DNA from: Candidatus Saccharimonadota bacterium
GTDB lineage: Bacteria > Bacteroidota > Bacteroidia > Cytophagales > Amoebophilaceae
Length of the DNA stretch: 32,000 nt
Direction of reading: 5' to 3'
Assembly (NCBI RefSeq): GCF_964030745.1
Contig: NZ_OZ034918.1
Span: forward strand, 60,001-92,000
How positions within the stretch are numbered: position 1 is the stretch's first letter; every line of letters starts with the position of its first letter. The notes under the pieces are model-generated. The model was not told the origin of the DNA, ran no database searches, and worked only from the letters and a program-made list of their open reading frames with translations. This document shows, in pieces, positions 6,815-24,684 of this stretch. A program made the position numbers and the translations under genes.

Positions 6815-6938
6815 CCAGTCCAGTATAAAGATAATTATAGCCAATCAAAAAAAGTTTAGCAAAAACCATCCTCTATTGTTAAATAAACTCTGCCTTCGAC
6901 AGTTCTTTATCAGATTTATAAACACGATGGTAATGAGT

Positions 6939-8128: not shown

Positions 8129-8542
8129 AATGAGTATTTTTTGTATTTCACATATCTATTCTAAATTCCCGATTTGTTATATAAGTTATATTATGTTAAA
8201 TAGAAAAAAGTGGCCGTTAGAGGCAGTGGTGTTAAACAATCATGTATGATCTGCCTGTTTCTTTATATTTAGTGATGTGTAGTACGGCATACTGTATGGG
8301 TTGTATCGTATATTGCTGCATATTAATCATGGGAAATTTCTTTCCCCTGTGCTTGTTGATTTGATCTTAACGCAATTGTAGCATATGAAATATGCGTAGA
8401 TACACTTTACGTAGTAAAGTATAGTGTGCTATACTTTTAAAAAAGTACCGACGTTTTTAATATAAACTGTAAGGGAAAAAATAGTTGTATGCTCCGAAGT
8501 AGTGTTGCGTTGTTTTAATAAAATTCTATACAGTGGATGAGC

Positions 8543-10210
8543 TTATTTTTTTAGATCTTTTACTTGTATTTCATACGCCCAGTCGTCTATCATTCTGGTT
8601 TCCTCATTGAAGTTAATGCCTAGTAGTATAATGGCTTTTTGTCTAAGTAAGTAAGGCTTATAATACCCGTTTGCTTTGATTTGGTCTAAGGCTATTTTGC
8701 CGCTGGATTTGTACTTTATTTCTATAATGTAAATGGCTGTTTCTAATTCTAAAACGATATCTGATCTGCCTTGACTGGAAGCAGATTCACTATACATTTG
8801 CATTCTCCTACCTCCTAGAAATCCCAACCCTTGCAGTAGCATATGTAAATTGCTGTGGTACTGCTTTTCTTGTTTCGTATCTAAGTAATAAGGAAGGGTT
8901 GAAAATACCGTATTGATGTGATCTATAAAGGTTTCAACTTTTTTATCAGATAATGCTTGTCTGATGGTATCGCGCTCGTGTATAAAGTAATCTTTTACGC
9001 TTTTTTCCAGACTAGACTGTATACTTTTCTGAAAAGACGCTTCTATTTCTTTATTGGGAAATTTTAATCTATATAGACCACTAGGTTCATCATAATGGTC
9101 AATGGTGAGATAGCCGGTTTGAAACATTAGAGACTTTAAACTAATCTCATTTCTACTTTCTGTATACATTAAGTCTTCTCTGACGGCCTCTATTTGGAGG
9201 TTGCCCATGTTAATATCAAACCTATCAGGATCTGCTAGCATTTGGTTAATGAGTAAGCTTGGACTACCTGACTCGTACCAGTAGTTGGCTAGTTCGCCAG
9301 AGTCTAAAAATCGTAGTGTAGACCATGGATTATACACACTTAGGCCATTCTGATGGAATCTATATCCATTGTAATAAGCCGCAATACGCTGCATTACTTC
9401 TGATTCAGTTATTTTTTTATTTTCTTTTTTGCTCCATTGCTCAGCAATATCTTCTAATTTTTTTGAGAATATAGTTAGGATTTCTTGTTGCGTATAACCA
9501 AACATGGCATCAGCAGATGCATCAATGGTAATATCTTTCAAATGATTAGCGCCTGAAAACACATCAGATAAACTAAATTTGCTTACCCCAGTGATAAAAG
9601 TAAATTGAAAATGTTTGTTGAGGGATTTCAAAGTCATAAAGAAATCTTTCATGACCTTGATGTTAGCTTTCTCTAGATCTGAGCCTTTTGTTAGATGAAC
9701 AATAGGTGCATCGTATTCATCTATAAGGACTACTATTCTAGGTTCATAAACAGATTGTATATTTTCCTTGTTGTCTATAGTATCTTCTAGATGTATCAGT
9801 TGTAACACTAGACTACGCAGTGCATCTTTAACAGTAACATCTTCTATTTTTACTTTATACGAAAAGGCTATTTCTTTTAATACCATTTTAATAGATGCGC
9901 TTAGCTCTTCGGGTGTGTTATTCGATACCCCTGAAAAGTCCAAATTAATCACCGGATATTTCTTCCAGTCATATCCATTTTCCGGTTTACCTATATGGTA
10001 ATCTTTAAAAACTTCTTGCTCGTCATTGCATATGGTAGCCAGTGTATCGATAAATAGAGACTTTCCAAATCGCCTAGGTCTAGCTATAAAGATAGGATTT
10101 CTTTTTTCAATCAATTCTTGTGCATATCTTGTTTTATCTACATAATAGCCTGTTTCAATGACTGATTTAACATCTGAATAGCCAATAGGCAGTGCATTTA
10201 TTTTACGCAT
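8543..10210 (-). CDS. AAA-ATPase_like (DUF1703-type) protein with a C-terminal PD-(D/E)XK (PDDEXK_9-type) nuclease domain
   Basis: The N-terminus LPIGYSDVKSVIETGYYVDKTRY...IFIARPRRFGKSLFIDTL is the characteristic start of the Bacteroidota predicted AAA-ATPase family. The C-terminus GRSDIVLELETAIYIIEIKY shows a D...E-x-K nuclease motif. The ATG lies 4 nt after the stop of the upstream gene. Confidence 0.8.
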   Translation of the reverse strand: MRKINALPIGYSDVKSVIETGYYVDKTRYAQELIEKRNPIFIARPRRFGKSLFIDTLATICNDEQEVFKDYHIGKPENGYDWKKYPVINLDFSGVSNNTPEELSASIKMVLKEIAFSYKVKIEDVTVKDALRSLVLQLIHLEDTIDNKENIQSVYEPRIVVLIDEYDAPIVHLTKGSDLEKANIKVMKDFFMTLKSLNKHFQFTFITGVSKFSLSDVFSGANHLKDITIDASADAMFGYTQQEILTIFSKKLEDIAEQWSKKENKKITESEVMQRIAAYYNGYRFHQNGLSVYNPWSTLRFLDSGELANYWYESGSPSLLINQMLADPDRFDINMGNLQIEAVREDLMYTESRNEISLKSLMFQTGYLTIDHYDEPSGLYRLKFPNKEIEASFQKSIQSSLEKSVKDYFIHERDTIRQALSDKKVETFIDHINTVFSTLPYYLDTKQEKQYHSNLHMLLQGLGFLGGRRMQMYSESASSQGRSDIVLELETAIYIIEIKYKSSGKIALDQIKANGYYKPYLLRQKAIILLGINFNEETRMIDDWAYEIQVKDLKK

Positions 10211-10214
10211 GATT

Positions 10215-11156
10215 TTATTTTTTTAAAGATCTTTTTCTTTCCCTTTCGTTGATTTCGTATGCTATGATACTTTTCCAAGCAAGCCTGTCTTGCTCAGCTG
10301 CGATAGAGAGCTGGCTGGTTTTAGTTAAAGTAGAGGCCTTGTGTCGTAATTTAACAGCTTTTTCTTTAAGTTTTGTAGATACAATGATATTGTTTTGTAA
10401 CAAGTTGTAAGCTGCTAGCCGCTCATTGACCTTAAGCCCCGCTGCATCATCATCTAATAGCTGTTGAATCTCTTTATTACTAGCTAGCAATTCATCGGCT
10501 TCTCTTTGGTAAGCGTCGGCTAGGAGTAACTGTTTGGTATGACTGTATTCCCCGACCGTACGATCATATTGAATCGACTTTTCAATGTCCTTATTGAGTT
10601 TTCGCAAATCAGTATATTTTCCATTTGCTGCTTTGATACCCACTAATTTACCCGTATTTTTCAGAAATCTATTCACTGAATGAATGGTTTGTTTTTCCCT
10701 TGCAGAACTATATTTCATGTTTTTTTTAAGCTTACTGGTATATTTGGTTTCCGGTATATACCTAGATGGGTTTAAGCTGATACCGAGTACATCTTCTGTT
10801 TGGCCTAAGATCATTTTTTTAAAGCTCATATTTTTGAGTTTTTTACCTAGGTTAATGGCATCTCTGACCGTCCTATTCGCTTTTTCTATGGCTCGTTTGG
10901 TTTCCATAGCTGTCCTGGCACTATCTCTGATTTTATCAAAAGTACTTTTTTCTGTTTGGGCAATCGTTTTTAGAAGATCTACCTGTTTGTCTTGCTTACC
11001 AAATAGTTTTTTGACCGTACTACCAAATGGTATATAATCTAACGCACTGTTAACCACATCTTTGAGGGTTTCTCCAGCCTTATCCCACTTATCTCCTGCA
11101 TAAGCTACAGTAGCGGTTGATAGAAACAGTAGCCATAAATATCTTTTATAACTCAT
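10215..11156 (-). CDS. hypothetical secreted coiled-coil protein in the tra-remnant operon
   Basis: 313-aa ORF with signal peptide MSYKRYLWLLFLSTATVAYAG. The rest is Lys/Glu-rich and helical. It is tightly packed between a small upstream ORF (stop abuts its ATG) and the AAA-ATPase_like gene. Confidence 0.65.
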   Translation of the reverse strand: MSYKRYLWLLFLSTATVAYAGDKWDKAGETLKDVVNSALDYIPFGSTVKKLFGKQDKQVDLLKTIAQTEKSTFDKIRDSARTAMETKRAIEKANRTVRDAINLGKKLKNMSFKKMILGQTEDVLGISLNPSRYIPETKYTSKLKKNMKYSSAREKQTIHSVNRFLKNTGKLVGIKAANGKYTDLRKLNKDIEKSIQYDRTVGEYSHTKQLLLADAYQREADELLASNKEIQQLLDDDAAGLKVNERLAAYNLLQNNIIVSTKLKEKAVKLRHKASTLTKTSQLSIAAEQDRLAWKSIIAYEINERERKRSLKK

Positions 11157-11306
11157 CTATTTTTTGATTGTTTTTCCTGCACAGACATATACCTCTCTAC
11201 CTTTATGCAGTTTAAAGGACTTAGTTTTGGTTATGTCTTTCATAAACTGGGTGGCCATTTTACTTATCTCACTGGCTAAGCCCGAGTCGGCTTGATCGGT
11301 GATCAT
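11157..11306 (-). CDS. possible small ORF (49 aa from the first ATG) between the TraN-like gene and the 313-aa gene
   Basis: The minus-strand frame reads MITDQADSGLASEISKMATQFMKDITKTKSFKLHKGREVYVCAGKTIKK. Its TAG (11157-11159) directly abuts the ATG of the next gene (11154-11156). It falls below the ORF-track size cutoff and I recognise no family. Confidence 0.2.
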   Translation of the reverse strand: MITDQADSGLASEISKMATQFMKDITKTKSFKLHKGREVYVCAGKTIKK

Positions 11307-11344
11307 ATCCAATACTTTATGACTGCTGTTTTCAATAATGGGGT

Positions 11345-12020
11345 TTACGCCTTCACAAAAGAGACCAGGTAAGAAAGACGCGCAGGTATAGATAAGTTTA
11401 CCAAGCGACTACCAGATTGTTCAATAAAACCTACTAAGAGTTTTCCATTAATAGATGTGGTATAGCGTGGTAAGACGTATACAAACATTTTACTGCTATA
11501 AGCGGGTATCACTCGATCTTCTAAGCCATATATAGGAAAGACGAGTTTTCTACTTTTTTTACTGTTGTAGTGCTGGAAGTTTGTTTCAAAGAGTTCAAAG
11601 GTTAGACCTGTTTTATTTTCCAAGTATATTTTTAGGTAGGTATGCTCCTCATCATGAAATAGATTGGTAAGGATAAGGTCATAATACCTAGTATGCTTCC
11701 CTACATTAAAATAGACCTGATCCATTGATCGAATGTGTTGTATTTTTTGTACTACCTGATGGTCTAATGTAGGTTTTAAGCTAGCCTCCTCTCCTCCTTT
11801 GGTTGTAAAATCATAGACTTCTTGTGGTTTATGGGTAGATCGCAATAGACCGTTAAAGACCTTATGCCCCTTTTTAAAAGTAACCACTATAGAGGTAGGG
11901 GCTGTACATCGATGAAAATCGATGCGCAACTTGTATCTGCTCTAAAGGGCTATAATGGGTTATTTTTTCTGCTGCTTGAACTGTACAATAAAAAAAACAA
12001 CAGATCATTAGGCTACGCAT
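11345..12020 (-). pseudogene. conjugative-transposon TraN-like (DUF4138-type) gene, apparently frameshifted near its 5' end
   Basis: The C-terminal two thirds (VGKHTRYYDLILTNLFHDEEHTYLKIYLENKTGLTFELFETNF ... FVYVLPRYTTSINGKLLVGFIEQSGSRLVNLSI) follow the Bacteroides TraN pattern as I recall it (LxGIYxHxGxLYF...IxNxSxxxFDVD...FxLxKFT...LxVxLxExxGGRxLxLxI). The signal peptide (MRSLMICCFFYCTVQAAEK...QIQVAHR, ATG at 12020) sits in a different frame from the body. The frame switch lies around 11925-11935, in a short T/A run. Confidence 0.5.
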
Positions 12021-12310
12021 TATTTTGGACATAGGCATCTTTATTTTTAGGGTCAACAAAAGTAAAATCAGTAATCAGCAAGCCGTAAGGGTTTTCTTTG
12101 CTTCTGTGCGTTGTTTTTAGTTTAAAATAGACCCCTCCGGGTAGTTCTTTATGATCTAGTCCACTAAGCTTTTTGCCTTCTAACCCCAAGAACCGCAAAG
12201 TAGTCGTGTAAAAGGCTACTACTTCATAAGGGTAGTCCATTAGATTGGTCTCTATCTGTTCAACAGACAAGATGGATACACCGTTATAGGTTTTATATAC
12301 CTGAAATACT
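12013..12310 (-). pseudogene. 3' fragment of an unknown gene, 5'-truncated by IS481 copy 2
   Basis: The minus-strand frame is open from the IS boundary (12310) without a stop: VFQVYKTYNGVSILSVEQIETNL...VQNNA. Its TAG overlaps the TraN-like ATG (ATGCGTAG), which implies former translational coupling. I recognise no family. Confidence 0.5.
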
Positions 12311-12374
12311 TGTAGTAGTTGATATTTAATCTGACATTTATTAATTTGTGTTGATATAAATACCGACTACTATT

Positions 12375-13421
12375 ATGAATTTACATCAAAAAATCATCAA
12401 GCCGAAAGTAGGCTTATTGGAGCTAGCAAAAACGTTGGGGAACATTTCATCGGCGTGTAAAACTATGGGTTATAGTAGAGATAGCTATTATCGCTTCAAA
12501 GCCTTGTATGAAACAGGCGGTCAAGAGGCTTTACAAGAGATAAGCCGTAGGAAGCCGATTATGGCTAATAGAGTAGATCCTAGTATAGAAAAAGCAGTAG
12601 TAGATATGGCGATAGATTATCCAGCCTATGGCCAGCTTAGAGTATCTAATGAACTAAAGCAACAAGGTATCCTGGTCTCTCCTGGCGGTGTCAGGTCTAT
12701 CTGGTTACGTAATGACTTAAATAATATAAAAAAACGTCTTAAAGCCTTAGAAGCTAAAATGGCTCAAGATGGCCTTGTTTTAACGGAATCTCAGCTATCC
12801 GCATTAGAAAAACGTAAGCATGAACAAGAAGCATGTGGAGAAATAGATACAGAACACCCTGGTTATTTAGGCTGTCAAGATACTTATTACGTTGGTAACT
12901 TTAAAGGGATAGGTAAGGTTTATACGCAAGTATTTATAGATAGTTATTCTCGGGTAGCTCATGCAAAACTCTATACTGATAAGACAGCCTTGACAGCTGC
13001 TGATATGTTAAATGATAGAGTATTGCCTTGGTATCAAGAACAAAGCATACCCCTCTTGCGCATTCTAACAGATCGTGGTACTGAGTATAAAGGTAAAATA
13101 GAGCATCATGCCTTTGAGTTGTTTTTAAGCATAGAAGGCATAGAACATACTGTTACTAAAGCCTATTCACCGCAAACCAACGGGTTCTGTGAGCGGTTTA
13201 ATAAAACGATGAAACAGGAATTCTTTGATACAGCTATGCGTAAGAAGATCTATACAGACCTGGATGTCTTGAAACAAGATTTAGATAGCTGGTTACATTA
13301 TTATAATCATGAGCGACCACATTCTGGAAAGTACTGTTACGGTAAAACGCCTATACAAACTTGGGAAGATAGTAAAAAACTAGCCGAGGCCGTTGCAATA
13401 GACCTTTACGATTTGCCATAA
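12375..13421 (+). pseudogene. IS481-family transposase truncated by the IS5 insertion
   Basis: The protein is identical to the copy 1 transposase through ...[10 protein letters not shown], then reads into IS5 sequence ([11 protein letters not shown], stop). The remaining codons ([25 protein letters not shown]) lie at 14696-14773. Confidence 0.9.
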
Positions 13422-14690
13422 AAAGTATCTTTTTATTTTTTAGAAGAAGGTAAAAAAAGGTTAAATTCTATTGATTTTTTTAGGTATTGATGCTTAAAAC
13501 TTTTAATAATATTGTGTATGTCGCTCAAGCAAACTAAGCAATTAAGTTTTTCAGATATTTCCGCCAATAAGCGTAAGTGCAAACACACTTTCTTTGATCA
13601 AATCAACAAGCTAGTTAATTGGTCAGTAGTAGAAAAAGCACTCCGATTACATTATCCTAAAGGTTTACGTTTATCAGGCAAACCGGCCTATAGTCCTCTG
13701 CTTCTATTCAAAATGCTATTGCTACAGACGTGGTATGGCTTGAGCGACTATGCAGTCGAAGAAGAAGTGAATGATCGTATCACTTTTAGCAGATTTTGTG
13801 GTATTTCGATGGATAGTTCTGTTCCAGATCATAGTGTACTAAGTAGATTTAGAACTACCCTTACAGAGAAGAATGCTTTAGAAAAGTTATTGCATATCAT
13901 TAATAATCAGCTATCTGATCATGGTGTATTGGTTCAAAACGGTTCAGCAGCTGTAGATGCTTCTATTACCCCTACCCCTAGACGCCCTAAAGGTAAAAAA
14001 AGCTACGATCTGCATGAAGATGGAACCATAACCACAGCTGAAAGTTATCAAAAAGGAGTAGATCCAGAAGCAAGTTGGATAAAAAAAGGCCATCATCTCT
14101 ACTATGGCTATAAGCGGCATGTTCTTGTGGAAAGCAAAGAGGGGTTGGTGCTAGCCGTAGGTACCACAAAAGCATCTAGTCATGATAGTGGGCATTTACA
14201 GGTATTATTGGATAAAGTAAGGCTAAAATCAGGCAGCAGACTCTATGCAGATAAAGGCTATAGCGGGTCGCCCAACGAAAATTTACTAAAGAAAAAGAAG
14301 TTAAAATCAGCTATTCAGAAAAAAGGGGCTAGAAACAATCCTTTATCACCCACTGCTAAACGGTTTAATAAATTAGTATCTAAAACGCGCTATAAAGTAG
14401 AACGGGTATTTGGAAGTATTAAAAGTTGGTTCCGTAGCTCAGGAGCCAGATATATAGGCCTTGCTAAAACCCATACGCAACATGTTATGGAGGCAATAGC
14501 CTATAACTTATATAGGTCCCCAAACATCATATTAAGAGGTATCTAGGGGAATGGTGTGTCCAAAATAGATTGAAAATGACTAAAAAATCAGTAAATAAAT
14601 AGTTTTATACCACTATAACATCAAATATGGCAAGGAAATAACCCTGGAAGATTAATCAAAATTATACCTTCAACCTATCACAACGGCCTC
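13386..14690 (+). mobile_element. IS5-family insertion sequence (about 1305 bp) nested inside IS481 copy 2
   Basis: Termini gaggccgttgcaatag (13386-) and ctatcacaacggcctc (-14690) are imperfect inverted repeats. tagcc is duplicated at 13381-13385 and 14691-14695. Comparison with the uninterrupted copy 1 (tagcc at 8009-8013) defines the insertion exactly: 1310 bp including the duplication. Confidence 0.9.
13518..14546 (+). CDS. IS5-family DDE transposase
   Basis: The N-terminal DUF772-like region (GKPAYSPLLLFKMLLLQTWYGLSDYAVEEEVNDRITFSRFCGI...VPDHSVLSRFR) is followed by a DDE_Tnp_1-like region (VDASIT ... YADKGYSG ... RYKVERVFGSIKSWF...ARYIGLAK...AIAYNL). The ATG at 13518 is preferred over the TTG at 13512. 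Confidence 0.9.
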   Translation: MSLKQTKQLSFSDISANKRKCKHTFFDQINKLVNWSVVEKALRLHYPKGLRLSGKPAYSPLLLFKMLLLQTWYGLSDYAVEEEVNDRITFSRFCGISMDSSVPDHSVLSRFRTTLTEKNALEKLLHIINNQLSDHGVLVQNGSAAVDASITPTPRRPKGKKSYDLHEDGTITTAESYQKGVDPEASWIKKGHHLYYGYKRHVLVESKEGLVLAVGTTKASSHDSGHLQVLLDKVRLKSGSRLYADKGYSGSPNENLLKKKKLKSAIQKKGARNNPLSPTAKRFNKLVSKTRYKVERVFGSIKSWFRSSGARYIGLAKTHTQHVMEAIAYNLYRSPNIILRGI

Positions 14691-14798
14691 TAGCCTTTGA
14701 AAAAAATAATCAAATCGCGTATCTTAAGAGCATACCTGACAAACTAAACTTAACTGACATCTATACAGTCTAATTTTTACTGCCTGTCAGATTAAATA

Positions 14799-15179
14799 TC
14801 AACTACTACACATAATATCTTCCAAAGGGTAGCCCTTGAGAAGCATAGCCTTAGCTATCTCTAGCTTCCCTTTCTCTTCCCCTATACGGATACCCTCTTG
14901 TCTTCCTATTTTTTCACCCTCTAGCTTGCCCTCTAGCTTTCCTGCTAGTCGCGCTTTCTTTTCAGCTTTCTCTATTGTATTGGCTTCTATTCTTAGCCAT
15001 TTCAAGTGATCTTCATAAGCCATTCTTTCTTCATCGGTAAAGTTCATCGTCTCTAAAACATGCAATGCCTTTTTTAGGCTGTCGTTATCCAAGGGTTGAG
15101 GTAAGTTATCTTTGTTGAGGAGATCGTTGCGGGTAAGAAAAGCAGTCCAAATGTCTAGTGCGTTTTTTATCTTTGTCAA
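14799..15179 (-). pseudogene. C-terminal fragment of an Rpn-family / PD-(D/E)XK_2 putative transposase-nuclease
   Basis: The ORF contains only the C-terminal helical part typical of this family (DIWTAFL..., FTDEERMAYEDHLKWLRIEANTIE, then the EGxKxGxxEGxxxG repeat and IAKAMLLKGYPLEDI). The N-terminal nuclease domain is absent. The last residues and the stop (MCSS, stop) are read from the IS481 terminal repeat, so the 3' end is cut by the IS. It has a TTG start only, and stops lie immediately upstream. Confidence 0.6.
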
Positions 15180-15287: not shown

Positions 15288-17363
15288 TTAACAGATCCCC
15301 TCACAAACCTGTAGTGCCTGGTTTGCTGCCTGCACCAATTCTTCTACGATTTTAGCATTCAAATATTTTTTCCCAAGTTCAACATCTATCGTAAGGGTTT
15401 CTTGGGCCATATATTTCACCTCTTCCAGGTAGATATAATCTTTGGCATGACGTAAATCATAAAGCCTTTCAGCAAATTTAATGCAAAGTATAAAAAGCTG
15501 TTCTCGGTTGATGATGCGTTTAAGGCGATTACCAACATAAAGCCCACATGGCTCCATCTCTTCACGTTTATTCACTGCGACAATGCTTTCTACAAAAGAA
15601 TAAACATCCACGCTATAATTGGCTTTCACATAAGCAAGCGGTAAACCTGCATAACGCACCAAACCATACAACACACTGAAATAAACTGGCCTTGGTTGGT
15701 AAGGTACCCATTCTGCTACCAGCTGGGCAATACCTAACGCACGGATATAAAACAATTGTCCTGATGCATGCCGCCTAAAACCATAACAACGCCTGATCAG
15801 CAAGAAAAGCTCATCCAATACAATCGTGCGCATATCAGCCGTTGTACAAAGATTGTGATAGGCCTGCGTTAATGTTACCATAGACTCCTTAAACTCCCTA
15901 TAGGCAATAGCAGGATCTGAGGGTAGTATCCTGGAAATCATTTCATCCCGTACAGCCGCTACATTACAAGGCACCACAATAAGCATAGGCCTCTTATGAG
16001 AGGTTGGGAATTGTACATAACCATAGTGGATACGGACAATTCGTTCTATATTTCGTTTTTCTACATTTGTCCACTCTGATGCTTGCTGCGACATATTGTG
16101 CCAATTCAACGCACTACCTACTGTAACATCTTGATAAACAGACTTAACCGTAGGTAATAACGATTCAGACATAGCAGCATGGCTAATCAGCAGTGCTATA
16201 GCAGGAAAACAGACATCTGTAGTAGTGCTTCCTTTAGCAGAGGCCCGTGCACTATACCTTAGAGAGGTAATATGTAATCGAATACGTACAAAGCCATCTT
16301 TTGAACCATCTAGGCTGGCCATACTTAAAATAATAGGAGTCAGCAAGGCAATCATCTGATTCACATCACATATAATCTTCTCGGGAAACTGATCGCCCTT
16401 AGGCTCTATAAACAACTTGGGAACAGAACGCCCCTTATTTTCCAAGTCTAATGCAGCTTCTACCTTTCGAATCAGCTCATCAAGGTGCACTTCAGTTGGT
16501 ATTAAAATAATATGGTTCCTAGACCTAGCCCGTTGCTTTAGAAAAATGTCCCAAATCACAAAATTTTTAGTAATAAGATCTAAATCTTCCTTATAAAGCG
16601 GTCTAGTATCTACATAGGAGATAAATTTTGTAACCTCTTTCATGATTTGATCTATAAAAGCATGTGCTTCCTGCGGATTATTGCGAATCGTTCCCAGATC
16701 CGAGTATAGTCCAGCCCCTGCTTGCCTTTGCTCCTGCTCTTTTGTTTGTTGTTCTTGTATTTTATTGCTTAAATAATGGCCATAATATTTATAACCAGCT
16801 AGTTTACGCTTGTTATAAACAATAATAAAAAAAATCATTAGGCCTAATCCCAGCAGAGAGATTAACAAGCCAGCTGATGCCAACAGTTCTGCTGTATCGA
16901 TGTTATAGATTGCGTAAGAAATTGCTAATAATGTCAAGGCTACCAACTTTATGCTTATGTATAAGGGTAATACGGATAAGGTTACAGATAAATGGGCTAC
17001 AGATAAAGCCAATGTAAAAGCAGATGGAAGATGCACTACACCTGACCAATTCCAAAGTAGATGGATAGGCAGACAAAAAACCACACTTATCAACCAACGT
17101 CGACCAATCTTCCAAGATGGAGTTGCCTTCTTAGAATCTATTGCATAACCTATGAGCGAAATAGCCGTAATAAATTGCAGTAAGTACCAATAGACAAAAC
17201 CTTCGCTTGCATAATCTAATATAGTAGTGGATATAACGTAACACCCTACAAATCCCATAATAGCATCGCTTGACTTAAGCTTAGCCAATCTTTCTTTTGT
17301 AGAGGAAGACTTTAGCAGCAACAATATTAATATTATTGCAAAAGGTAGCATACTAAACGACAT
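15288..17363 (-). CDS. multi-pass membrane protein with a degenerate histidine-kinase-like module and a degenerate RelA/SpoT-type HD module (paralog 1)
   Basis: 691-aa ORF with an ATG at 17361-17363. The N-terminal roughly 190 aa are hydrophobic, with several predicted TM helices. The middle has an H-box-like FISYVDTRPL and a HATPase-like layout (EVHLDELIRKVEAAL ... IICDVNQMIALLTPIILSMA ... IERIVRIHYGYVQFP ... LIVVPC). The C-terminus aligns with the SpoT hydrolase domain (RRHASGQLFYIRALGIAQLVAEW / VLYGLVRY / ILCIKFAERLYDLRHAK / MAQETLTIDVELGKKY). Confidence 0.85.
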   Translation of the reverse strand: MSFSMLPFAIILILLLLKSSSTKERLAKLKSSDAIMGFVGCYVISTTILDYASEGFVYWYLLQFITAISLIGYAIDSKKATPSWKIGRRWLISVVFCLPIHLLWNWSGVVHLPSAFTLALSVAHLSVTLSVLPLYISIKLVALTLLAISYAIYNIDTAELLASAGLLISLLGLGLMIFFIIVYNKRKLAGYKYYGHYLSNKIQEQQTKEQEQRQAGAGLYSDLGTIRNNPQEAHAFIDQIMKEVTKFISYVDTRPLYKEDLDLITKNFVIWDIFLKQRARSRNHIILIPTEVHLDELIRKVEAALDLENKGRSVPKLFIEPKGDQFPEKIICDVNQMIALLTPIILSMASLDGSKDGFVRIRLHITSLRYSARASAKGSTTTDVCFPAIALLISHAAMSESLLPTVKSVYQDVTVGSALNWHNMSQQASEWTNVEKRNIERIVRIHYGYVQFPTSHKRPMLIVVPCNVAAVRDEMISRILPSDPAIAYREFKESMVTLTQAYHNLCTTADMRTIVLDELFLLIRRCYGFRRHASGQLFYIRALGIAQLVAEWVPYQPRPVYFSVLYGLVRYAGLPLAYVKANYSVDVYSFVESIVAVNKREEMEPCGLYVGNRLKRIINREQLFILCIKFAERLYDLRHAKDYIYLEEVKYMAQETLTIDVELGKKYLNAKIVEELVQAANQALQVCEGIC

Positions 17364-17594
17364 TATAACACTTTAAGTTAAAACATAATCAGTAACTAAA
17401 AAATGATCAGAAGAACAAACAGAAGCTTAAATGGTCAATAAGCCACTCCAAGTTACAACACCAAGCCCCAAGTATAGGATATTATATGCTCCAACTCAAC
17501 TTTTTTGAATAAAATCCCATCTACTCCAATATAATAAAATAAAAGTTGAGCCATAAAAAACAGGAGGTTACTTACTTTTTTCCAATTAAATTAT

Positions 17595-17602
17595 TAGATT
17601 TG
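17595..17602 (+). promoter_or_regulatory. candidate Bacteroidota -7 promoter box (TAnnTTTG) upstream of tRNA-Gln
   Basis: tagatttg matches TAnnTTTG exactly and ends 22 nt before the tRNA 5' end. No clean TTG -33 element was found upstream. Confidence 0.3.
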
Positions 17603-17623
17603 TAATTACATACAGTTAATTAC

Positions 17624-17695
17624 TGTCCGGTAGTGTAATGGCAACACGTCTGGTTTTGGTCCAGAAGACTCTAGGTTCGACCCCTAGCCGGACAA
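17624..17695 (+). tRNA. tRNA-Gln (anticodon UUG)
   Basis: Cloverleaf by eye. The acceptor stem tgtccgg (17624-17630) pairs with ccggaca (17688-17694), with discriminator A. The anticodon arm is tctgg-ttTTGgt-ccaga, with TTG in the anticodon position. The T arm is ctagg-ttcgacc-cctag. U1:A72 is typical of bacterial tRNA-Gln. CCA is not encoded. Confidence 0.9.
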
Positions 17696-17733
17696 CTTTT
17701 AAGCAACCCCTTAAAGCATAATAAATCATCAAG

Positions 17734-19074
17734 ATGTTAGGTTTGTACCATATACGCAGGGCAATAAGAGTAGGCTTTCCTTGTTTTACGTTACTAACGG
17801 CTGCTCATGTAGGATTGGCAAAACAGGAAAAAAATAAGCAAACGGCTGTTGTAGCGCCTACAATACAAAAAGTAGTACCTGATGTCGACAAAGCTAACAT
17901 TGCTAATAAAAACAAGCTGCAAAGTGATCTAGAAGCTGAAAATGCACTCAATCGAGCACGTTTGGAAAAACAACTCTCCACCATCATTGCTCAAATTGAG
18001 CAGCTTCGCCTTGAAAAAGAACGTCAACGCCTAGACAAGGAGATAGAGGATGAAAATGTACGCAGGGAGCATGACAAAGAGATGCGTTTGCTCAACATGA
18101 AAAGGGAAAAACTGGCCATCAAACTAGAACTAGCAAAAGTTAAGTTAATGATGCAAATGGAACAGTATGACAGTCAATTGCTTAAAATTGGGAAAAAAAT
18201 AGAATTAGAAAAAGGAGAAACACAACTACTACAAGAAGCTGCCCATCGATTACAAGCAGAAATGGAAACCTTACAGGCCCAAGCAGCGCGAGACAAGCAT
18301 ATTCAAAAAAAGCCTATTTACCTAAAAGACCCATTGATCAAGAAAAGCAATACCTTAGTCCTTTCGGATCGATGCATTGACTTAAATGGGGCGATTACAC
18401 CTTGGAAGGCAAATTACATTGTAGATCAAATTCACTATTTTAATAATAAAAGTAATGAATACCCTATATTTTTGGTCATTGGTGATTCCCCAGGCGGGTA
18501 TATAAGTGCAGGGTGGAATATTTTACAAGCAATAGAACATAGCAAAGCACCTGTTTACGTGGTTGTAAAAACATGCGCCGCTTCTATGGCAGCTATGATT
18601 ACCACATTGGCCACTAAATCTTATGCTTATCCAAATGCTAAAATCCTACATCATCAGCCCTTTTCCTGCGTTTGGGGTAATCTCAGAGAAACCAAAGAGC
18701 ATTATGAGCAGCTTAATGAAATCTGGAAACGTTTAGGAAGTAGGGTAGCTAAAAAAATGGGTATATCGCTTGCAGCATTTGATAAAAAGCTCTACGAGAA
18801 GTCTATGTATGGGGACTGGATGGAGTATGGTAACAAAGCTAAAAAGCTTAAATGGGTCGATTACGTAATTGATGGTATTCAAAATAGTGCGGTAAGCAGC
18901 CTACCAGAAGCAGTCAACTATACTTTCGAACAATTTATAAAGCACCATTATGGCTTTGATGCTGGAAAAGGAAAGGAACAATCTTCAGAAGAGGAATATT
19001 ACCAAGCGCTAGCGCCTCACGATTTTGACTATAGGCACAGACCTGGTCGAAAAGATCAGATAGTGACTAAGTAA
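17734..19074 (+). CDS. secreted or membrane-anchored ClpP-like (S14/ClpP-crotonase fold) serine protease with a long N-terminal coiled coil
   Basis: 446 aa. The N-terminus carries a hydrophobic signal-like segment (FPCFTLLTAAHVGLA). Residues from about 60 to 190 are heptad-rich and charged (LEAENALNRARLEKQLSTIIAQIEQLRLEKERQRLDKE...). The C-terminal half follows the ClpP pattern: IDLNGAI...IFLVIGDSPGGYISAGWNILQAI...VKTCAASMAAMI...AKILHHQP...GDWMEYGNKAKKLKWVDYVI. Confidence 0.8.
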   Translation: MLGLYHIRRAIRVGFPCFTLLTAAHVGLAKQEKNKQTAVVAPTIQKVVPDVDKANIANKNKLQSDLEAENALNRARLEKQLSTIIAQIEQLRLEKERQRLDKEIEDENVRREHDKEMRLLNMKREKLAIKLELAKVKLMMQMEQYDSQLLKIGKKIELEKGETQLLQEAAHRLQAEMETLQAQAARDKHIQKKPIYLKDPLIKKSNTLVLSDRCIDLNGAITPWKANYIVDQIHYFNNKSNEYPIFLVIGDSPGGYISAGWNILQAIEHSKAPVYVVVKTCAASMAAMITTLATKSYAYPNAKILHHQPFSCVWGNLRETKEHYEQLNEIWKRLGSRVAKKMGISLAAFDKKLYEKSMYGDWMEYGNKAKKLKWVDYVIDGIQNSAVSSLPEAVNYTFEQFIKHHYGFDAGKGKEQSSEEEYYQALAPHDFDYRHRPGRKDQIVTK

Positions 19075-19343
19075 CAAGTTGTTACAAGTCGATGTGGTTG
19101 CTCAATATCTAATTGACGCTAATTTTACGCACGCTGTCTCATCCAACCTCCTCAGAAAAAACGAACCTTGGAAGAATTGCCAATCATTCAATATTGAAAA
19201 TCCCTCCCCCAGTAGTAAATTATCCAATACAGATACTAAATTTTTGAAACAATCCAACTAAAATACTTGAATTTATTCTTATAATTTTATTATGTTGCAT
19301 CATATTTTATAATGCGTTTAAGTAACTCGTAATTTGTTTGACG

Positions 19344-21533
19344 ATGTCATCCCATATACCTTTCCTCATGGCATTACCCTTTTTGCTATTGGTCCTGATA
19401 GTGGCTTATTACCTTAAGCAAAGTGCGGCTCCATCTGGAGAGCATAGTCTAAACCACAAACAATTTGCTTATGAAATCAAAGCCATTCAACACGCCATTA
19501 GGCGTACAAAACGTCGCATCAAACAATCGTTGCAAGCCACTTCTATACAAGAAAGATTGGCTAAACTACGGCCCAGTGATGCGATAATTGGATGTACAGG
19601 ATGTTACGTTCTGCTTACCACAATATTGGACTATATAAGTGGAGGACTGACCATTTACTGGTATATATTCCAATTTTTTATAGGCATTTGGCTAATAGGT
19701 TATGGAATTGCAGCAAAAAAAAATGTCCCATCTTGGAAAATTGGTCGGTCTTGGCTCATATGCACCATTCTTTGCCTTCCTGTAAATATATTTTGGCACT
19801 GGTTTCATCTCCATGATCCTCAATTTGCCCTAACTTTATCTGTGGGGCATTTATCTGCCACTTTATTTGTTTTACCACTGTATATTAGCATAAAACTGGT
19901 TGTGACTACACTAGTAGTAATTTTGTATGCGATCTACAACATAGGTGTAGATCAGCTATTGGCTTCAAGTGATTCTTTACTCTCTCTACTAGGATTTGGC
20001 TTAATCGTTTTTGCCATTATTATTTACAATAAACGCAAAATAACTGCCTATACGCTGTACAATCGCTACTTAAAAAATCAAGTAAACCTAACAGAAAACA
20101 AAAACCATAAACCTATACAAACGCATGCCAACGCCCATTTGGACAATGCAAGTCAAAACCCATCAGACAGTGGGCCTTCTGTAGAAAAAACGATGCAGGG
20201 CGTTACTGACTTTATGTCATATTTAGATAATAAACCGCTTTACCAGCAAGACATTGAAAGTATTATCAACAACTTTATCACTTTTACTACTTTTTTAAAG
20301 CAGCGCGCCAGATCGATAGACCATATACCATTAGCACCAAATGAGATTACTATAGCTGAATTGATCTCCAAGCTAGAGACCACACTAGAAGGTAGGGCCT
20401 CATCAACTCCAAAACTGGTGGTAGAAATAAAAAACAATGCTATTCCTAAAAAAATCACATGTGATATCAATCATATGATCCAAGCATTGGTGCCTATTGT
20501 TTTACGTACCGCTAATCCAGCTATTTCAAAAGGTGATTCTGTAAACATTCAATTACATCCCACTCACTTAAAGTATACCCAAAAGCATAGTCCAAAAGTC
20601 CACCCAGAAATGCGCTTTCCAGCTATAGCACTGGTAATCAGCAACACTACTACCCCTGCCACGATACTACCACAAATTAAAAATGATTATGAGGATATTA
20701 CAGAGGGTAGGGCGCTTAAATGGCATAGCAGTCAGACAAACTTAGAGCGGATACAAGCTGAAAAGCATATCATAGAACGAGCAGTTCGTGCCCACTATGG
20801 TTACCTACGCTTTCCTATTTCTCAAAAAAGGGCTATGTTAATGGTATTGCCTTGTGATGTAGTGCAAATTCGAGATGCAATGATCGCCCAAATACCCTCT
20901 TTACATGTTCCTATTACCCAAAAAGAAATTGATCAATCGATGGAAGTATTTGTGAGATCTTATAATCACCTTTTAGAAATATCCGAAGCACGTAAAGCTG
21001 TATTAGATGAAATATTGCTATTGACCAGAAGATGCTATGGTTTTAGACGTCACCCATCAGGGCAACTCTTGTACATTCGCGCAATAGGTATTGCACAATT
21101 GGTTGCAGAATGGATACGATTTTATCCAGAGCCCATTTACGTTGTTTTACTTTATGACTTAGTCCATTATGCAGATTTACCACTTGCTTATATTAAGGCC
21201 AATTATGATCTGAGTATCTACTCTTTTATAGAGAGCATTTTAGCAGTACATGACCGTCAAAGCATGGAGCCATGTGGGCTGTATATTGGAAATGCGCTTA
21301 AACAGGTAATCAACCGGGAGCAACTTTTTGTGCTTTGCATTAAACTAGCTGAACGGCTTTATGACCTACGGCATGCGAAAAGCTATACCCAGCTAGATGA
21401 GCTAAGGTATATGGCCCAAGAAACCCTTACGATAGATATTGAACTGGCCAAAAAATATTTAAATGCTAAAATTGTAGAAGCATTGGAAAATGCAGTGGAA
21501 CAGGCACTACAAGTTTGTGAAAACAATAGCTGA
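19344..21533 (+). CDS. multi-pass membrane protein with a degenerate histidine-kinase-like module and a degenerate RelA/SpoT-type HD module (paralog 2)
   Basis: 729 aa from the ATG at 19344; the ORF track starts at a TTG two codons upstream. It is collinear with paralog 1 throughout. Manual alignment gives about 70 percent identity over the last 160 or so residues, and less in the membrane and central parts. It has an extra N-terminal insert of about 40 aa. Confidence 0.85.
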   Translation: MSSHIPFLMALPFLLLVLIVAYYLKQSAAPSGEHSLNHKQFAYEIKAIQHAIRRTKRRIKQSLQATSIQERLAKLRPSDAIIGCTGCYVLLTTILDYISGGLTIYWYIFQFFIGIWLIGYGIAAKKNVPSWKIGRSWLICTILCLPVNIFWHWFHLHDPQFALTLSVGHLSATLFVLPLYISIKLVVTTLVVILYAIYNIGVDQLLASSDSLLSLLGFGLIVFAIIIYNKRKITAYTLYNRYLKNQVNLTENKNHKPIQTHANAHLDNASQNPSDSGPSVEKTMQGVTDFMSYLDNKPLYQQDIESIINNFITFTTFLKQRARSIDHIPLAPNEITIAELISKLETTLEGRASSTPKLVVEIKNNAIPKKITCDINHMIQALVPIVLRTANPAISKGDSVNIQLHPTHLKYTQKHSPKVHPEMRFPAIALVISNTTTPATILPQIKNDYEDITEGRALKWHSSQTNLERIQAEKHIIERAVRAHYGYLRFPISQKRAMLMVLPCDVVQIRDAMIAQIPSLHVPITQKEIDQSMEVFVRSYNHLLEISEARKAVLDEILLLTRRCYGFRRHPSGQLLYIRAIGIAQLVAEWIRFYPEPIYVVLLYDLVHYADLPLAYIKANYDLSIYSFIESILAVHDRQSMEPCGLYIGNALKQVINREQLFVLCIKLAERLYDLRHAKSYTQLDELRYMAQETLTIDIELAKKYLNAKIVEALENAVEQALQVCENNS

Positions 21534-22598: not shown

Positions 22599-23702
22599 CT
22601 ATTCAAATACTGTGCAATCGTTCAACTTTTTTAAAAAATTTTGAATCAATATAGGTTTGGGTAAAGTTTCAATCTCTGCGCGATTAAATGATACCAAAGA
22701 AAATTGATTGAATAGATGGTTTGCTTCTTGCAAGAAAGCTGACGTAACCTCTATTTTATGAAATTTTACCAACAACTTCTGATGGGTCAACAAATGGCGC
22801 TCCTCTTTTTCAAAAGTAACAACAGGTAAGTGATGTTTTTGGGCCAGACAAAACAAAGGATCATTCATCTGATTTACAACCAAACGCTGCTCATTTTCTA
22901 ATAAATAGAAATCATACATCCCTTTCCAAATATCACTTTTTATACGTTTTTTCATATATATAACATCCCCATATGTCAAAATGAAATAGTCAAAATAACG
23001 GATCCTTTTATGTAGCTTATTACTTTTAACAGGCAATACTTTCTGCCTATCAGTATAAAAAGCAATACAATAGTTTTTAAAAATACAGGTAGCACAACAA
23101 GGAGATGCTGGTGTACATTGGAGCGCACCAAAATCCATAATAGCTTGACTATAGGTATCAGGTTGCAAATGATCTACCAATAGAGTAGCAAATTGATGCA
23201 TTTGTTTCCTTCCTTGCGATGTACCCACATCATAGGTTAGGCCAAAAATACGTGCCAATACACGGTAAACATTTCCATCTACCGCAGCAACTACTTCTTT
23301 AAAAGCAACCGCAGCAATGGCTGCAGCTGTATAAGGTCCAATGCCCTTAAGCATTCGTAATGCTTGATAACTAGTGGGAAAAAAGCCATTATGTTGCGCA
23401 ACAATGGTTTGCGCACAATGGTGTAGGTTCCGTGCTCTACTATAGTACCCCAATCCCTGCCACAAACGTAGCACCTCCTGCTCTGTAGCACTGGCTAGAG
23501 CGGTTACGGAAGGATATTTAGCTATAAACCGCTCATAATAAGGCAACCCCTGAGCTACTCTTGTTTGTTGTAAAATAATTTCTGATAACCATATCTTATA
23601 TGGATCCTTAGTAAAACGCCAGGGTAAAGAACGCTGATGTGAGGCATACCAAGCAAGCAACAATTTACGAAAGGTAACATGGGTAAGCGTACTAATGACC
23701 AT
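22599..23702 (-). CDS. mutY: A/G-specific adenine DNA glycosylase
   Basis: LLAWYASHQRSLPWR...DPYKIWLSEIILQQTRV, the HhH motif (LKGIGPYTAAAI), and the Cx6Cx2Cx5C iron-sulfur cluster loop (CTPASPCCATCIFKNYC), followed by a C-terminal NUDIX-like domain. The start is set at the internal ATG (23700-23702, MVISTLTHVTFRK). The 87-codon upstream extension in the ORF track has no MutY counterpart and runs across the divergent promoter region. Confidence 0.85.
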   Translation of the reverse strand: MVISTLTHVTFRKLLLAWYASHQRSLPWRFTKDPYKIWLSEIILQQTRVAQGLPYYERFIAKYPSVTALASATEQEVLRLWQGLGYYSRARNLHHCAQTIVAQHNGFFPTSYQALRMLKGIGPYTAAAIAAVAFKEVVAAVDGNVYRVLARIFGLTYDVGTSQGRKQMHQFATLLVDHLQPDTYSQAIMDFGALQCTPASPCCATCIFKNYCIAFYTDRQKVLPVKSNKLHKRIRYFDYFILTYGDVIYMKKRIKSDIWKGMYDFYLLENEQRLVVNQMNDPLFCLAQKHHLPVVTFEKEERHLLTHQKLLVKFHKIEVTSAFLQEANHLFNQFSLVSFNRAEIETLPKPILIQNFLKKLNDCTVFE

Positions 23703-23886
23703 AGGCAATAGAATAACTAACAGCGTAATACATATTTTATTATATTTGGAAAACCTATTGCTACATACCTCAGTAGATAGTAGGATAGGTATTATGTATA
23801 AATGGCTGAAAATACAAAAATTTAAGTATAGCAGCCATTTTTTCGCTATAGATAAACATCCAAGCATCAGAAGGGCAAAAGATACT

Positions 23887-24684
23887 ATGAGCTTAAAATT
23901 AACCAACCCACTTATTTTTTTAGACTTAGAGACTACGGGTACCAACGTAGTACATGATCGCATCGTAGAAATTGCAATGATTAAGTTGATGCCAGATGGG
24001 AAGCGCTTAACCTTTTATAAAAGAGTCGATCCAGAACAAACCATTCCTATTGAAGCCAGTTTAATTCATGGTATTTATGCAGAGGATCTAAAAGGCAAAC
24101 CAACTTTTAAACAAATCGGTAAAGAATTGATTGCTTTTCTAAAGGGCGCTGATCTAGCTGGTTTTAATCTACTTCGTTTTGATATACCCATATTAGCAGA
24201 AAGCTTTTTGCGTGCAGATTTAGACTTTAAAGTAGAAAATCGCAAGATTGTAGATGTGCAAAAACTGTTTCACCTAATGGAAAAAAGAACATTAAAAGCA
24301 GCCTATCTATTCTATTGTCAAAAGGAGCTAGAAGGGGCCCATAATGCCATGGTAGATATAGAAGCCACACTAGAGATATTGGTAGAGCAAGTAAAAAGAT
24401 ATGAAAATCAGTCTGTAGTAGATGCTTTAGGCAATACATTAGGGATTATAAAAAATGATGTAGCTACCTTACATGATTTAACCAATACCAATATGGTTGA
24501 TTTTGCAGGCAGAATTGTTTACAACGAGCAACATATCCCTACCTTTAACTTTGGCAAACACAAAGGAAAAACAGTAGCCGAAGTGCTCAAACTAGAACCC
24601 TCTTACTATAATTGGATGATTCAAGGAGATTTTCCTTTGGATACCAAACGTAAACTAACACAAATTAAAATGGGGATCATGTAA
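23887..24684 (+). CDS. DnaQ-like (DEDDh) 3'-5' exonuclease
   Basis: The Exo I motif FLDLETTG comes right after the ATG at 23887 (MSLKLTNPLIFLDLETTG). FNLLRFDIPIL (Exo II) and HNAMVDIEAT (Exo III, H-x4-D) follow. The upstream part of the tracked ORF (from 23695) is judged non-coding. Confidence 0.85.
   Translation: MSLKLTNPLIFLDLETTGTNVVHDRIVEIAMIKLMPDGKRLTFYKRVDPEQTIPIEASLIHGIYAEDLKGKPTFKQIGKELIAFLKGADLAGFNLLRFDIPILAESFLRADLDFKVENRKIVDVQKLFHLMEKRTLKAAYLFYCQKELEGAHNAMVDIEATLEILVEQVKRYENQSVVDALGNTLGIIKNDVATLHDLTNTNMVDFAGRIVYNEQHIPTFNFGKHKGKTVAEVLKLEPSYYNWMIQGDFPLDTKRKLTQIKMGIM

Follow-up and report, generated by a model that had tools for sequence, protein, structure and literature searches.

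Two paralogous genes in a 32,000-nucleotide stretch of bacterial DNA (contig NZ_OZ034918.1, positions 60,001 to 92,000, of assembly GCF_964030745.1, placed by GTDB in the Amoebophilaceae; this whole stretch is called the window below) encode membrane proteins that combine the remains of a histidine kinase and of a RelA/SpoT-type hydrolase. We named them parA, a 691-residue open reading frame (ORF) on the minus strand, and parB, a 729/731-residue ORF on the plus strand. Judged by the domains and motif residues that they carry, they are predicted to be neither transporters, nor kinases, nor metal-dependent HD hydrolases of the canonical kind, and they appear to be a doubly inactivated, symporter-less variant of a known but uncharacterised lineage-specific family. 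We think it somewhat probable that they are conserved non-catalytic membrane pseudoenzymes, acting as regulators or sensors, of this Amoebophilaceae family.

The gene parA occupies positions 15288-17363 (minus strand, stop codon included). On the plus strand, parB lies at 19338-21533 and reads as a 731-residue ORF from a TTG codon; its likely start is the ATG at 19344, two codons further on, which gives 729 residues, and this is also where the 729-residue database protein P0001, 100% identical to parB, begins. BLASTP aligns the two proteins collinearly with 54% identity over 674 residues (E = 0). Between the genes lie a tRNA-Gln (UUG; 17624-17696, plus strand, identified with ARAGORN) and a gene for a long ClpP-like serine protease of 446 residues (17734-19074, plus strand). 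The window is assigned to the Cardinium endosymbiont of Philonthus spinipes, which has a protein 100% identical to the ClpP-like one, and all close relatives of parA and parB belong to Cardinium. Orthologs in six Cardinium genomes share 65-77% identity with parA, and those of parB share 65-80%; their database names are "hypothetical protein", "membrane protein of unknown function" and "HD domain-containing protein". A scan of the 15.0-21.8 kb region for sigma-70 promoters and terminators gave counts equal to the shuffled expectation; Bacteroidota promoters differ from the sigma-70 model.

The C-terminal HD_4-like pseudo-hydrolase domain comprises residues 513-690 of parA (15294-15827, minus strand; placed by alignment and motif columns) and residues 553-730 of parB (20994-21527, plus strand; placed by Pfam HD_4, profile and Foldseek matches). 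Pfam HD_4 (PF13328) scores 24.3 bits on parB (E = 3e-5), under the 27.2 cut-off, 32-37 bits on the clade relatives P0029-31 and 82-105 bits, with a Pfam HD match in addition, on distant full-length relatives. A family profile compared with the PDB matched Rel (9s6k_B, E = 0.0057). Foldseek with the full-length model of parB retrieved RelSeq (1vj7_B, 1.8e-4, root-mean-square deviation (rmsd) 4.9 Å over 205 columns) as well as B. subtilis Rel (8acu), T. thermophilus Rel (6s2v), SpoT (7qpr) and a small alarmone hydrolase (7p1y), all at probability 1.0, with superpositions of 4-7 Å rmsd over about 205 columns overall.

Inspection of the motif columns revealed that the H...HD...D metal tetrad and the catalytic ED diad, both intact in relatives, are kept in neither paralog. 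The residues H, HD, ED and D are replaced by R581, Y606-D607, H610-Y611 and E672 in parB, and by R541, Y566-G567, R570-Y571 and E632 in parA. The intact relatives carry the canonical SpoT motifs SGEPY..HP, LLHD.VEDT and KLADRLHNMRT, and the dead clade, made up of parA, parB and their nearest relatives, carries SGQLLY.R, LLY[D/G/E]LV[H/R]Y and KLAERLYDLRHA. The first metal-ligand His has become Arg, HD has become Y[D/G/E], ED has become [H/R][Y/H] and the last metal-ligand Asp has become Glu. Three of the new residues, R581, Y606 and E672 in the numbering of parB, are the same in 20 of 20 sequences, and the scaffold residues G575, Y579, K669, R673, R678, E695 and T696 are common to parB and its active relatives.

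The central region is laid out like a histidine kinase (HK), with a hairpin resembling the dimerisation and histidine phosphotransfer (DHp) domain followed by an α/β domain resembling the catalytic and ATP-binding (CA) domain. In parB these parts are residues 281-323 and 335-517 (20178-20888, plus strand; from the structural model and Foldseek), and in parA, mapped from parB through the alignment, residues 236-278 and 290-477 (15933-16658, minus strand). An AlphaFold2 (AF2) model of parB residues 255-548 has a mean predicted local distance difference test (pLDDT) score of 64, with 75-90 in the α/β core. When this model was searched against the PDB, the top 50 of 50 Foldseek matches were DHp-CA regions of HKs, over about 240 columns and at probability 1.0, including RetS (2.7e-7), HK853, ZraS, CusS, CckA and the kinase-related domains of plant phytochromes. 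A sequence profile built from a more diverse alignment of the family's central domain likewise matched solved kinases (ThkA 3a0r_A, 5.2e-8; ZraS 9jfj_A, 5.1e-6; HK853, ~0.003-0.008; AdeS, 0.02), the match spanning DHp helix 2, the N-box region and the "HGG" region. No HK match was returned by an NCBIfam scan of parA and parB, and no HK-family match at E <= 10 by a Pfam scan of 17 central domains.

In the family alignment the H-box His, the N-box Asn and the G1 box are missing in every member, the ones with an intact HD domain included; parB reads Q-A-L-V-P-I-V-L-R-T-A in the N-box columns and V-I-S-N-T-T-T-P in the G1 columns. No phospho-acceptor His conserved family-wide was found in or before DHp helix 1, and the helix 1 region is the least conserved part of the proteins (24% identity between parA and parB; ratio of nonsynonymous to synonymous substitution rates, ω, up to 0.57). 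What the HK-like module does keep family-wide is limited to a "CD" motif and an "AH[Y/G]G" motif, the latter a remnant of the G2-adjacent HGG motif in which H486 and G488 are invariant. Of the window ORFs that were scanned, none showed a receiver domain; the genome outside the window was not searched. Because the H-box His, N-box Asn and G1 box are missing in every member, the HK-like module is best regarded as an old dimerisation or transmission scaffold and not as a kinase. Moreover, since the kinase module is degenerate in all members and the HD domain is dead in one clade, the decay of the kinase is old and the death of the HD domain derived.

The N-terminal part lies in the membrane. In parA (16806-17363, minus strand; hydropathy and alignment to long forms of the family) it consists of an apparent remnant of the first transmembrane (TM) helix of a Na+/solute symporter (SSF) domain at residues 1-15 and a 6-TM block at residues 33-186. 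In parB (19356-20036, plus strand; hydropathy, distribution of K and R, and model helices) the corresponding segments are residues 7-27 and 81-233, and a basic cytoplasmic helix at residues 40-75, present in parB only, is placed between them. Hydropathy, the positive-inside rule and the AF2 model agree on 1+6 TM helices (~7) in both proteins. The predicted topology is N-out and C-in, which would make the HK-like and HD-like domains cytoplasmic, and the predicted periplasmic loops have only 3-10 residues. A Pfam scan gave no SSF (PF00474) match in parA or parB, and the 13-TM transporter core is absent.

The origin of this architecture is found in a family of larger proteins. An exhaustive HMMER search identified 246 cluster representatives at E <= 1e-3, many of them of about 1,150 residues and aligned end to end. 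These long members join an N-terminal SSF domain (44-70 bits) to the 6 TM helices, the HK-like module and the HD domain. The short forms align with residues ~451-1180 of the long form P0029 at 36% identity, and residues 6-44 of parB align with TM1 of the P0029 SSF domain (E = 0.004). An internal deletion of SSF helices 2-13 would leave just such a TM1 remnant, and the topology would be kept because an even number of helices is removed. A neighbour-joining tree built on 420 columns of the shared cytoplasmic region, with 100 bootstraps, recovered a dead-HD clade with 100% support in which the long, SSF-bearing members are basal; the short forms are nested within it at 96%, and the parA and parB clades, sisters at 100%, each hold one ortholog per Cardinium strain. 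Because the long forms are basal in the dead clade, the short forms nested and parA and parB sisters, the tree places HD inactivation first, SSF deletion second and the parA/parB duplication third, the duplication being older than the divergence of the sampled strains. We hold this account of the identity and evolutionary history of parA and parB with high confidence.

Members with intact HD motifs are numerous. The window's own genome encodes at least one long paralog, P0218, with intact LLHDVVED and KLADRLHN motifs, and a search with an intact-HD Cardinium member returned copies in many other Cardinium strains and in Amoebophilaceae metagenome-assembled genomes (MAGs); next in rank came genuine RelA/SpoT proteins, matched in the HD domain alone, and P0238, a true histidine kinase fused to an SSF domain. 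The 1.19-Mb chromosome of C. hertigii cHgTN10 (CP029619.1) carries at least 14 full-length paralogs with SSF, HK-like and intact HD domains (among them P0098, P0182, P0185-P0193, P0197 and P0203), and many of these are mutually 79-87% identical, which points to a recent and massive expansion in this nematode symbiont. In UniRef the cHgTN10 paralogs carry the automatic name "Bifunctional (p)ppGpp synthase/hydrolase SpoT", although those scanned with Pfam have no synthetase domain. We also noticed a partial and independent decay of the HD motifs elsewhere in the family, in the metagenomic proteins P0110, P0115, P0123, P0165 and P0105 of about 1,150 residues; examples from such relatives read R, YG, DE, S; N, HN, DV, E; and D, NG, ED, E at the positions of H, HD, ED and D. 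Hydrolase activity seems to be lost repeatedly in this family. In strain cEina3 a further short dead paralog, the third (P0027, 652 residues), sits at an unlinked locus (L012, 9001-12604, contig JBOZWW010000051), directly followed by a 471-residue ORF with a weak SSF match; the two could be a split or rearranged long form, or the ORF a stand-alone transporter remnant.

The Amoebophilaceae family has appeared in the literature under the labels "spoT/sodium glucose cotransporter", "RickSpo" and "putative sodium-solute symporter" (PMC6232779, PMC3153485, PMC8831229, PMC5698495). Atkinson et al. listed a "Rel + rickSpo expansion, 15 RSHs" for Amoebophilus, assigning the expansion to RickSpo, a small alarmone hydrolase subgroup in the RelA/SpoT homologue (RSH) superfamily (PMC3153485). 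Brown et al. counted "spoT ... sodium glucose cotransporter" homologs, 18 in Amoebophilus, 7 in cPpe, 3 in cEper1 and 2 in cBtQ1 (PMC6232779), and the transcriptome papers gave 19 "putative sodium/solute symporters" in Amoebophilus and 12 in cEper1 (PMC8831229, PMC5698495). In these four papers neither the HK-like module nor the dead short subfamily is described.

Much of this architecture had been read from the letters alone in an earlier note on this DNA, which also gave parB the 729 residues counted from the ATG. The two intact, collinear paralogs, the N-terminal block with several TM helices, the central DHp and CA layout, the C-terminal ~170 residues of RelA/SpoT type, the loss of canonical residues from both catalytic centres, and the central tRNA-Gln and ClpP-like gene with a signal peptide and a coiled coil have now been recovered by BLASTP, hydropathy, profile matches (ThkA for the kinase part), motif alignment, ARAGORN, Pfam and heptad analysis. 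Structure prediction followed by Foldseek, which the note had proposed, recovered both the HK DHp-CA fold and the Rel/SpoT HD fold at the level of models. Its expectation of HisKA/HATPase_c-like and HD_4-like profile matches was borne out in part: Pfam gave no HK match, the family's own profile did match HKs, and HD_4 stayed sub-threshold in parB. The note did not recognise the domain fusion from any described system; the fusion is no orphan and corresponds to the C-terminal two thirds of the ~1,150-residue, Amoebophilaceae-specific family.

Purifying selection acts on both genes and is strongest on the inactivated HD domain. Pairwise Nei-Gojobori estimates over the window and six related loci (dS 0.3-1.4) gave whole-gene ω of 0.16-0.28 for parA and 0.13-0.29 for parB, next to 0.14-0.27 for the ClpP-like gene and 0.12-0.21 for the housekeeping gene rfbB. 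Within the paralogs, ω is 0.088 (parA) and 0.085 (parB) in the HD-like domain, 0.22-0.27 in the TM and HK-like parts and 0.28-0.57 in the linker, and parA and parB are 71% identical in the HD-like domain versus 47-56% in the TM and HK-like parts. On these rates the two would be functional genes with the former hydrolase domain as their functional core, and the idea that they are pseudogenes was rejected on ω and on their intact frames. The parA ortholog of cBtQ1 from Bemisia tabaci (L006, 5797-7870) is split into two frames near codon 77, with tblastn pieces of residues 1-79 and 76-691, and parB is intact there; the split is either a frameshift pseudogene or an assembly error.

The protein encoded between the paralogs consists of a signal or anchor segment (residues 1-29, 17734-17820, with a hydrophobic stretch at residues 10-29), a coiled-coil-like stretch (residues 61-195, 17914-18318; 70% E/K/Q/L/R/A, 2% P+G, with a heptad pattern), a ClpP domain (residues 207-380, 18352-18873) and a C-terminal extension of ~65 residues (residues 381-446), all on the plus strand. 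Pfam CLP_protease matches residues 207-353 (7.6e-24, 85 bits against a 20.2 cut-off), and the best score among NCBIfam ClpP equivalogs is 69 bits, under the 249 cut-off. Of the triad S284-H307-D361, S284 and H307 are invariant and D361 is present in at least 90% of 15 homologs; D361 aligns with what we take to be D171 of E. coli ClpP. The profile match begins at ClpP residue ~24 and is preceded by the 200-residue signal and coiled-coil extension, and the protein appears to be exported and to lack the ClpX-docking N-terminus. In the homolog P0268, from the Cardinium endosymbiont of Tipula unca, the triad Asp is replaced by Ala ("MYGAWHEY"), and this protease may be inactivated. With 618 matches to the ~440-residue family, free-living Bacteroidota (Roseivirga) and Verrucomicrobiota (Roseibacillus) among them, we rejected a restriction of the gene to this locus. 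Annotations throughout call its members "ATP-dependent Clp protease proteolytic subunit", and the family looks uncharacterised.

The order parA(-), tRNA-Gln, ClpP-like, parB(+), rfbB(-) is kept in 6 of 6 other arthropod-Cardinium loci fetched. In nine other loci, Amoebophilus included, the tRNA-Gln immediately precedes the ClpP-like gene; the pair spans 17624-19074 in the window, 7882-9368 in L007, 7813-9368 in L009 and 7834-9329 in L010, and in Amoebophilus asiaticus 5a2 and the nematode Cardinium cHgTN10 the pair has no adjacent family member. An Amoebophilaceae MAG places a long SSF-HD gene one gene away from the pair. These neighbourhoods suggest that tRNA-Gln and the ClpP-like gene are the older unit, flanked by the paralogs only in arthropod Cardinium. 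The ClpP-like gene and parB point the same way, and in most strains only about 260-340 bp separate them; in the Cardinium of Oedothorax gibbosus (L001, 7567-9839) two transposase genes, a 293-residue IS982-like and a 406-residue Mutator/IS256-like one, lie between the ClpP-like gene and an intact parB. An adjacency produced accidentally by insertion sequences (IS) was rejected because the arrangement is conserved in all six other arthropod-Cardinium loci.

The earlier note's remaining claims fared unevenly. Selection on both paralogs, which it had argued for and proposed to check by dN/dS, was confirmed by the ω of 0.13-0.29. Its picture of full-length frames amid decaying neighbours fits the upstream side, rich in IS elements and fragments, and not the downstream side, where rfbB, mutY, an exonuclease gene and priA are intact. 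The paralogs and the ClpP-like gene, whose shared neighbourhood it wanted traced in related genomes, lie together in arthropod Cardinium, and no family member adjoins the ClpP-like gene in Amoebophilus 5a2 and cHgTN10. As for the non-canonical function that it proposed, selection speaks for one, and for regulation of the protease nothing was found beyond clade-limited synteny; the position of the paralogs beside tRNA-Gln and the ClpP-like gene appears to be a lineage-specific synteny, with a functional link a possibility.

Comparison with known systems places parA and parB among several partial parallels. They share the 6-TM block, the HK-like module and the HD fold with their parent, the Amoebophilaceae symporter/RickSpo family, and differ from it in having lost the SSF domain except TM1 and in the replacement of all HD metal and catalytic residues. 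The N-terminal hydrolase domain of RelA is described as an inactive HD fold kept as a regulatory switch (PMC8012599). Like this domain and other inactive HD domains of long RSH enzymes, parA and parB have a RelA/SpoT-type HD fold devoid of hydrolysis residues and retained under selection. Unlike RelA, which is fused to a synthetase and acts at the ribosome, they join the HD domain to a membrane anchor and an HK-like module and have no synthetase, and their substitutions (R, Y[DG], [HR]Y and E) are different ones. With RetS (6dk7/6dk8), the histidine kinase-related domains (HKRDs) of plant phytochromes and DivL-type proteins they share a DHp and CA layout lacking a working phosphorylation centre, and RetS and phytochrome HKRDs (7n0e among the matches) are the best structural matches to the HK-like module. 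RetS-type pseudokinases signal by dimerisation or partner binding, as in RetS-GacS. Unlike these proteins, parA and parB show no Pfam HisKA/HATPase_c signal and no receivers, and they have a C-terminal HD domain.

A further parallel concerns the long forms. CbrA and CrbS are sensor kinases fused to SSF (SLC5) domains, and the long forms similarly join SSF to DHp/CA. The SSF domain of P0098 is 28% identical to that of the SSF-fused kinase P0238 over 439 residues (E = 5e-36); BLASTP detected no similarity between the two proteins beyond the SSF domain, and in hhalign the family profile aligned with P0238 only at SSF TM1 (E = 0.063). Unlike P0238, an active-type kinase (HATPase_c 75.6 bits) with no HD domain, the family has a degenerate HK-like module and an HD domain. 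Descent of the family from an SSF sensor kinase is plausible. The central gene, compared with ClpP (peptidase S14) and the exported SppA and NfeD, shares the ClpP fold and a Ser-His-Asp triad; unlike canonical ClpP, it has a 200-residue N-terminal extension in place of the axial loops, in addition to its C-terminal extension.

How could such proteins work? We tentatively propose, by analogy, that parA and parB are sensors or modulators built as membrane dimers with a non-hydrolysing HD pocket. Dimers would form through the DHp-like helices, and heterodimers are possible because both copies are kept side by side. The remodelled pocket, in which an Arg side chain would take the metal's place, could hold a phosphorylated nucleotide, for example (p)ppGpp, without hydrolysing it, or else bind a protein partner. 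The proteins might then act as sensors in their own right or modulate the catalytically active symporter-HD paralogs, in a mode reminiscent of RetS-type pseudokinases and the RelA pseudo-hydrolase switch. A considerably more speculative extension, which we would not favour as it stands, is a private transceptor system of symporter, pseudokinase and alarmone hydrolase, in which dead HD subunits (parA, parB and the dead long forms) would serve, through a metal-free pocket, as alarmone or nucleotide receptors, heterodimerise with active paralogs and, within insect cells, tune the turnover of (p)ppGpp or of some other nucleotide signal derived from the host, maybe coupled to the ClpP-like protease.

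Several observations weigh against the pseudoenzyme interpretation or parts of it. The structural models are of moderate confidence (mean pLDDT 64), with low values in the DHp region and linkers. Pfam HisKA/HATPase_c is matched neither by parA and parB (E <= 1) nor by distant relatives, and HD_4 has no Pfam match in parA in addition to its sub-threshold score in parB. A semi-conserved His, H234, is present in 6 of 7 parA orthologs just upstream of the DHp-like helix, and parA may be phosphorylated in trans at this residue. An interaction with the long paralogs is conjectural. The synteny with the ClpP-like gene, conserved across the sampled arthropod-Cardinium strains, could reflect a functional link, and the text of the cEper1 transcriptome supplement has no entry for the ClpP-like gene.

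Such a link is the core of one alternative, in which parA and parB sense a signal and then regulate, anchor or feed substrates to the exported ClpP-like protease. The gene order conserved in the window and six other Cardinium genomes, the short co-directional gap before parB and the MAG with a long SSF-HD gene close to the pair all agree with it. We nevertheless consider it unlikely: the pair stands alone in Amoebophilus 5a2 and cHgTN10, many free-living Bacteroidota and Verrucomicrobiota have the ClpP-like family and lack the SSF-HD family, parB stays intact where two transposase genes separate it from the protease gene, and the third short paralog of cEina3 is unlinked. The compartments also disagree, as the HK-like and HD-like domains are predicted to be cytoplasmic, with loops of 3-10 residues, and the protease is predicted to be exported. 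Near-adjacency in the MAG is unsurprising with 12-19 family copies per 1-2 Mb genome.

The strong constraint on the HD-like domain (ω ~0.09) might alternatively mean that it is still an enzyme, in which the new R, Y and E (and, in parB, D607) would serve a hydrolytic or transfer reaction, either metal-independent or of a different kind, with a new substrate. The invariance of R581, Y606 and E672 would fit, as would the retention of scaffold and probable substrate-contact residues (G575 to T696, listed above). Yet all four metal ligands and the ED diad have changed together, the D78 position is occupied by D in parB, by G in parA and by E in the long dead forms, a variability unusual in catalytic residues, and we know of no active HD-superfamily member that lacks both His ligands; a surviving enzyme strikes us as quite improbable. 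Least credible of all is that parA and parB are functionless remnants of the expanded family which a decaying genome riddled with IS elements has not yet disrupted. The two have indeed lost the transporter and both catalytic centres, the upstream region is full of IS elements and gene fragments, and the cBtQ1 ortholog of parA is split near codon 77. These signs of decay are strongly outweighed by frames of ~690-730 codons that are intact in the window and 5-6 strains at dS 0.5-1.1, by the low ω overall and in the HD-like domain, by the invariance of the new active-site residues and by a duplication that predates strain divergence.

The surroundings of the locus are of two kinds. Upstream of parA, positions 5506-15179 form a mobile-element graveyard with a Mutator-family transposase (5506-6774), two IS481-like integrases (7003-8091 and 12375-13421), an AAA-ATPase_like/PDDEXK_9 gene (8543-10210), a DUF4138 (TraN-like) fragment (11345-11929), an IS5-family transposase (13512-14546) and a 126-residue C-terminal fragment of an Rpn/PD-(D/E)XK transposase-like protein (14799-15179). 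Further upstream, the ORF at 56-1732 encodes a contractile-injection-system tape measure protein (Pfam CIS_TMP, 1.8e-39), which presumably belongs to the antifeeding prophage (AFP)-like, type VI secretion system subtype iv (T6SS-iv) apparatus described for Cardinium and Amoebophilus. On the downstream side, the mutY-like ORF (22599-23963, minus strand) runs for about 87 codons before MutY-like residues appear ("MVISTLTHVTFRKLLLAWY..."); translation probably starts at the internal Met, because the ORF overlaps the divergent exonuclease ORF (23695-24684, plus strand) by 269 nt.

Cardinium and Amoebophilus, both obligate intracellular symbionts, have few classical regulators, yet this single family takes up 1-2% of their tiny genomes. 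Its members pass in the symbiosis literature for plain nutrient symporters of unknown substrate, and the stringent-response literature lists the HD domain only; the present analysis describes them as a fusion of transporter, kinase-like transmitter and alarmone hydrolase. Within this family Cardinium keeps a subfamily that appears stripped of every catalytic function, with the former hydrolase pocket as its most conserved part, which makes parA and parB candidate alarmone or nucleotide receptors or regulatory partners. The relevance lies mainly in the fields of (p)ppGpp signalling, pseudoenzymes and symbiont physiology. If parA and parB are receptors, a membrane-bound pseudo-hydrolase class would be added to the RSH superfamily, and the two proteins may offer a handle on how unculturable reproductive manipulators sense the host cell.

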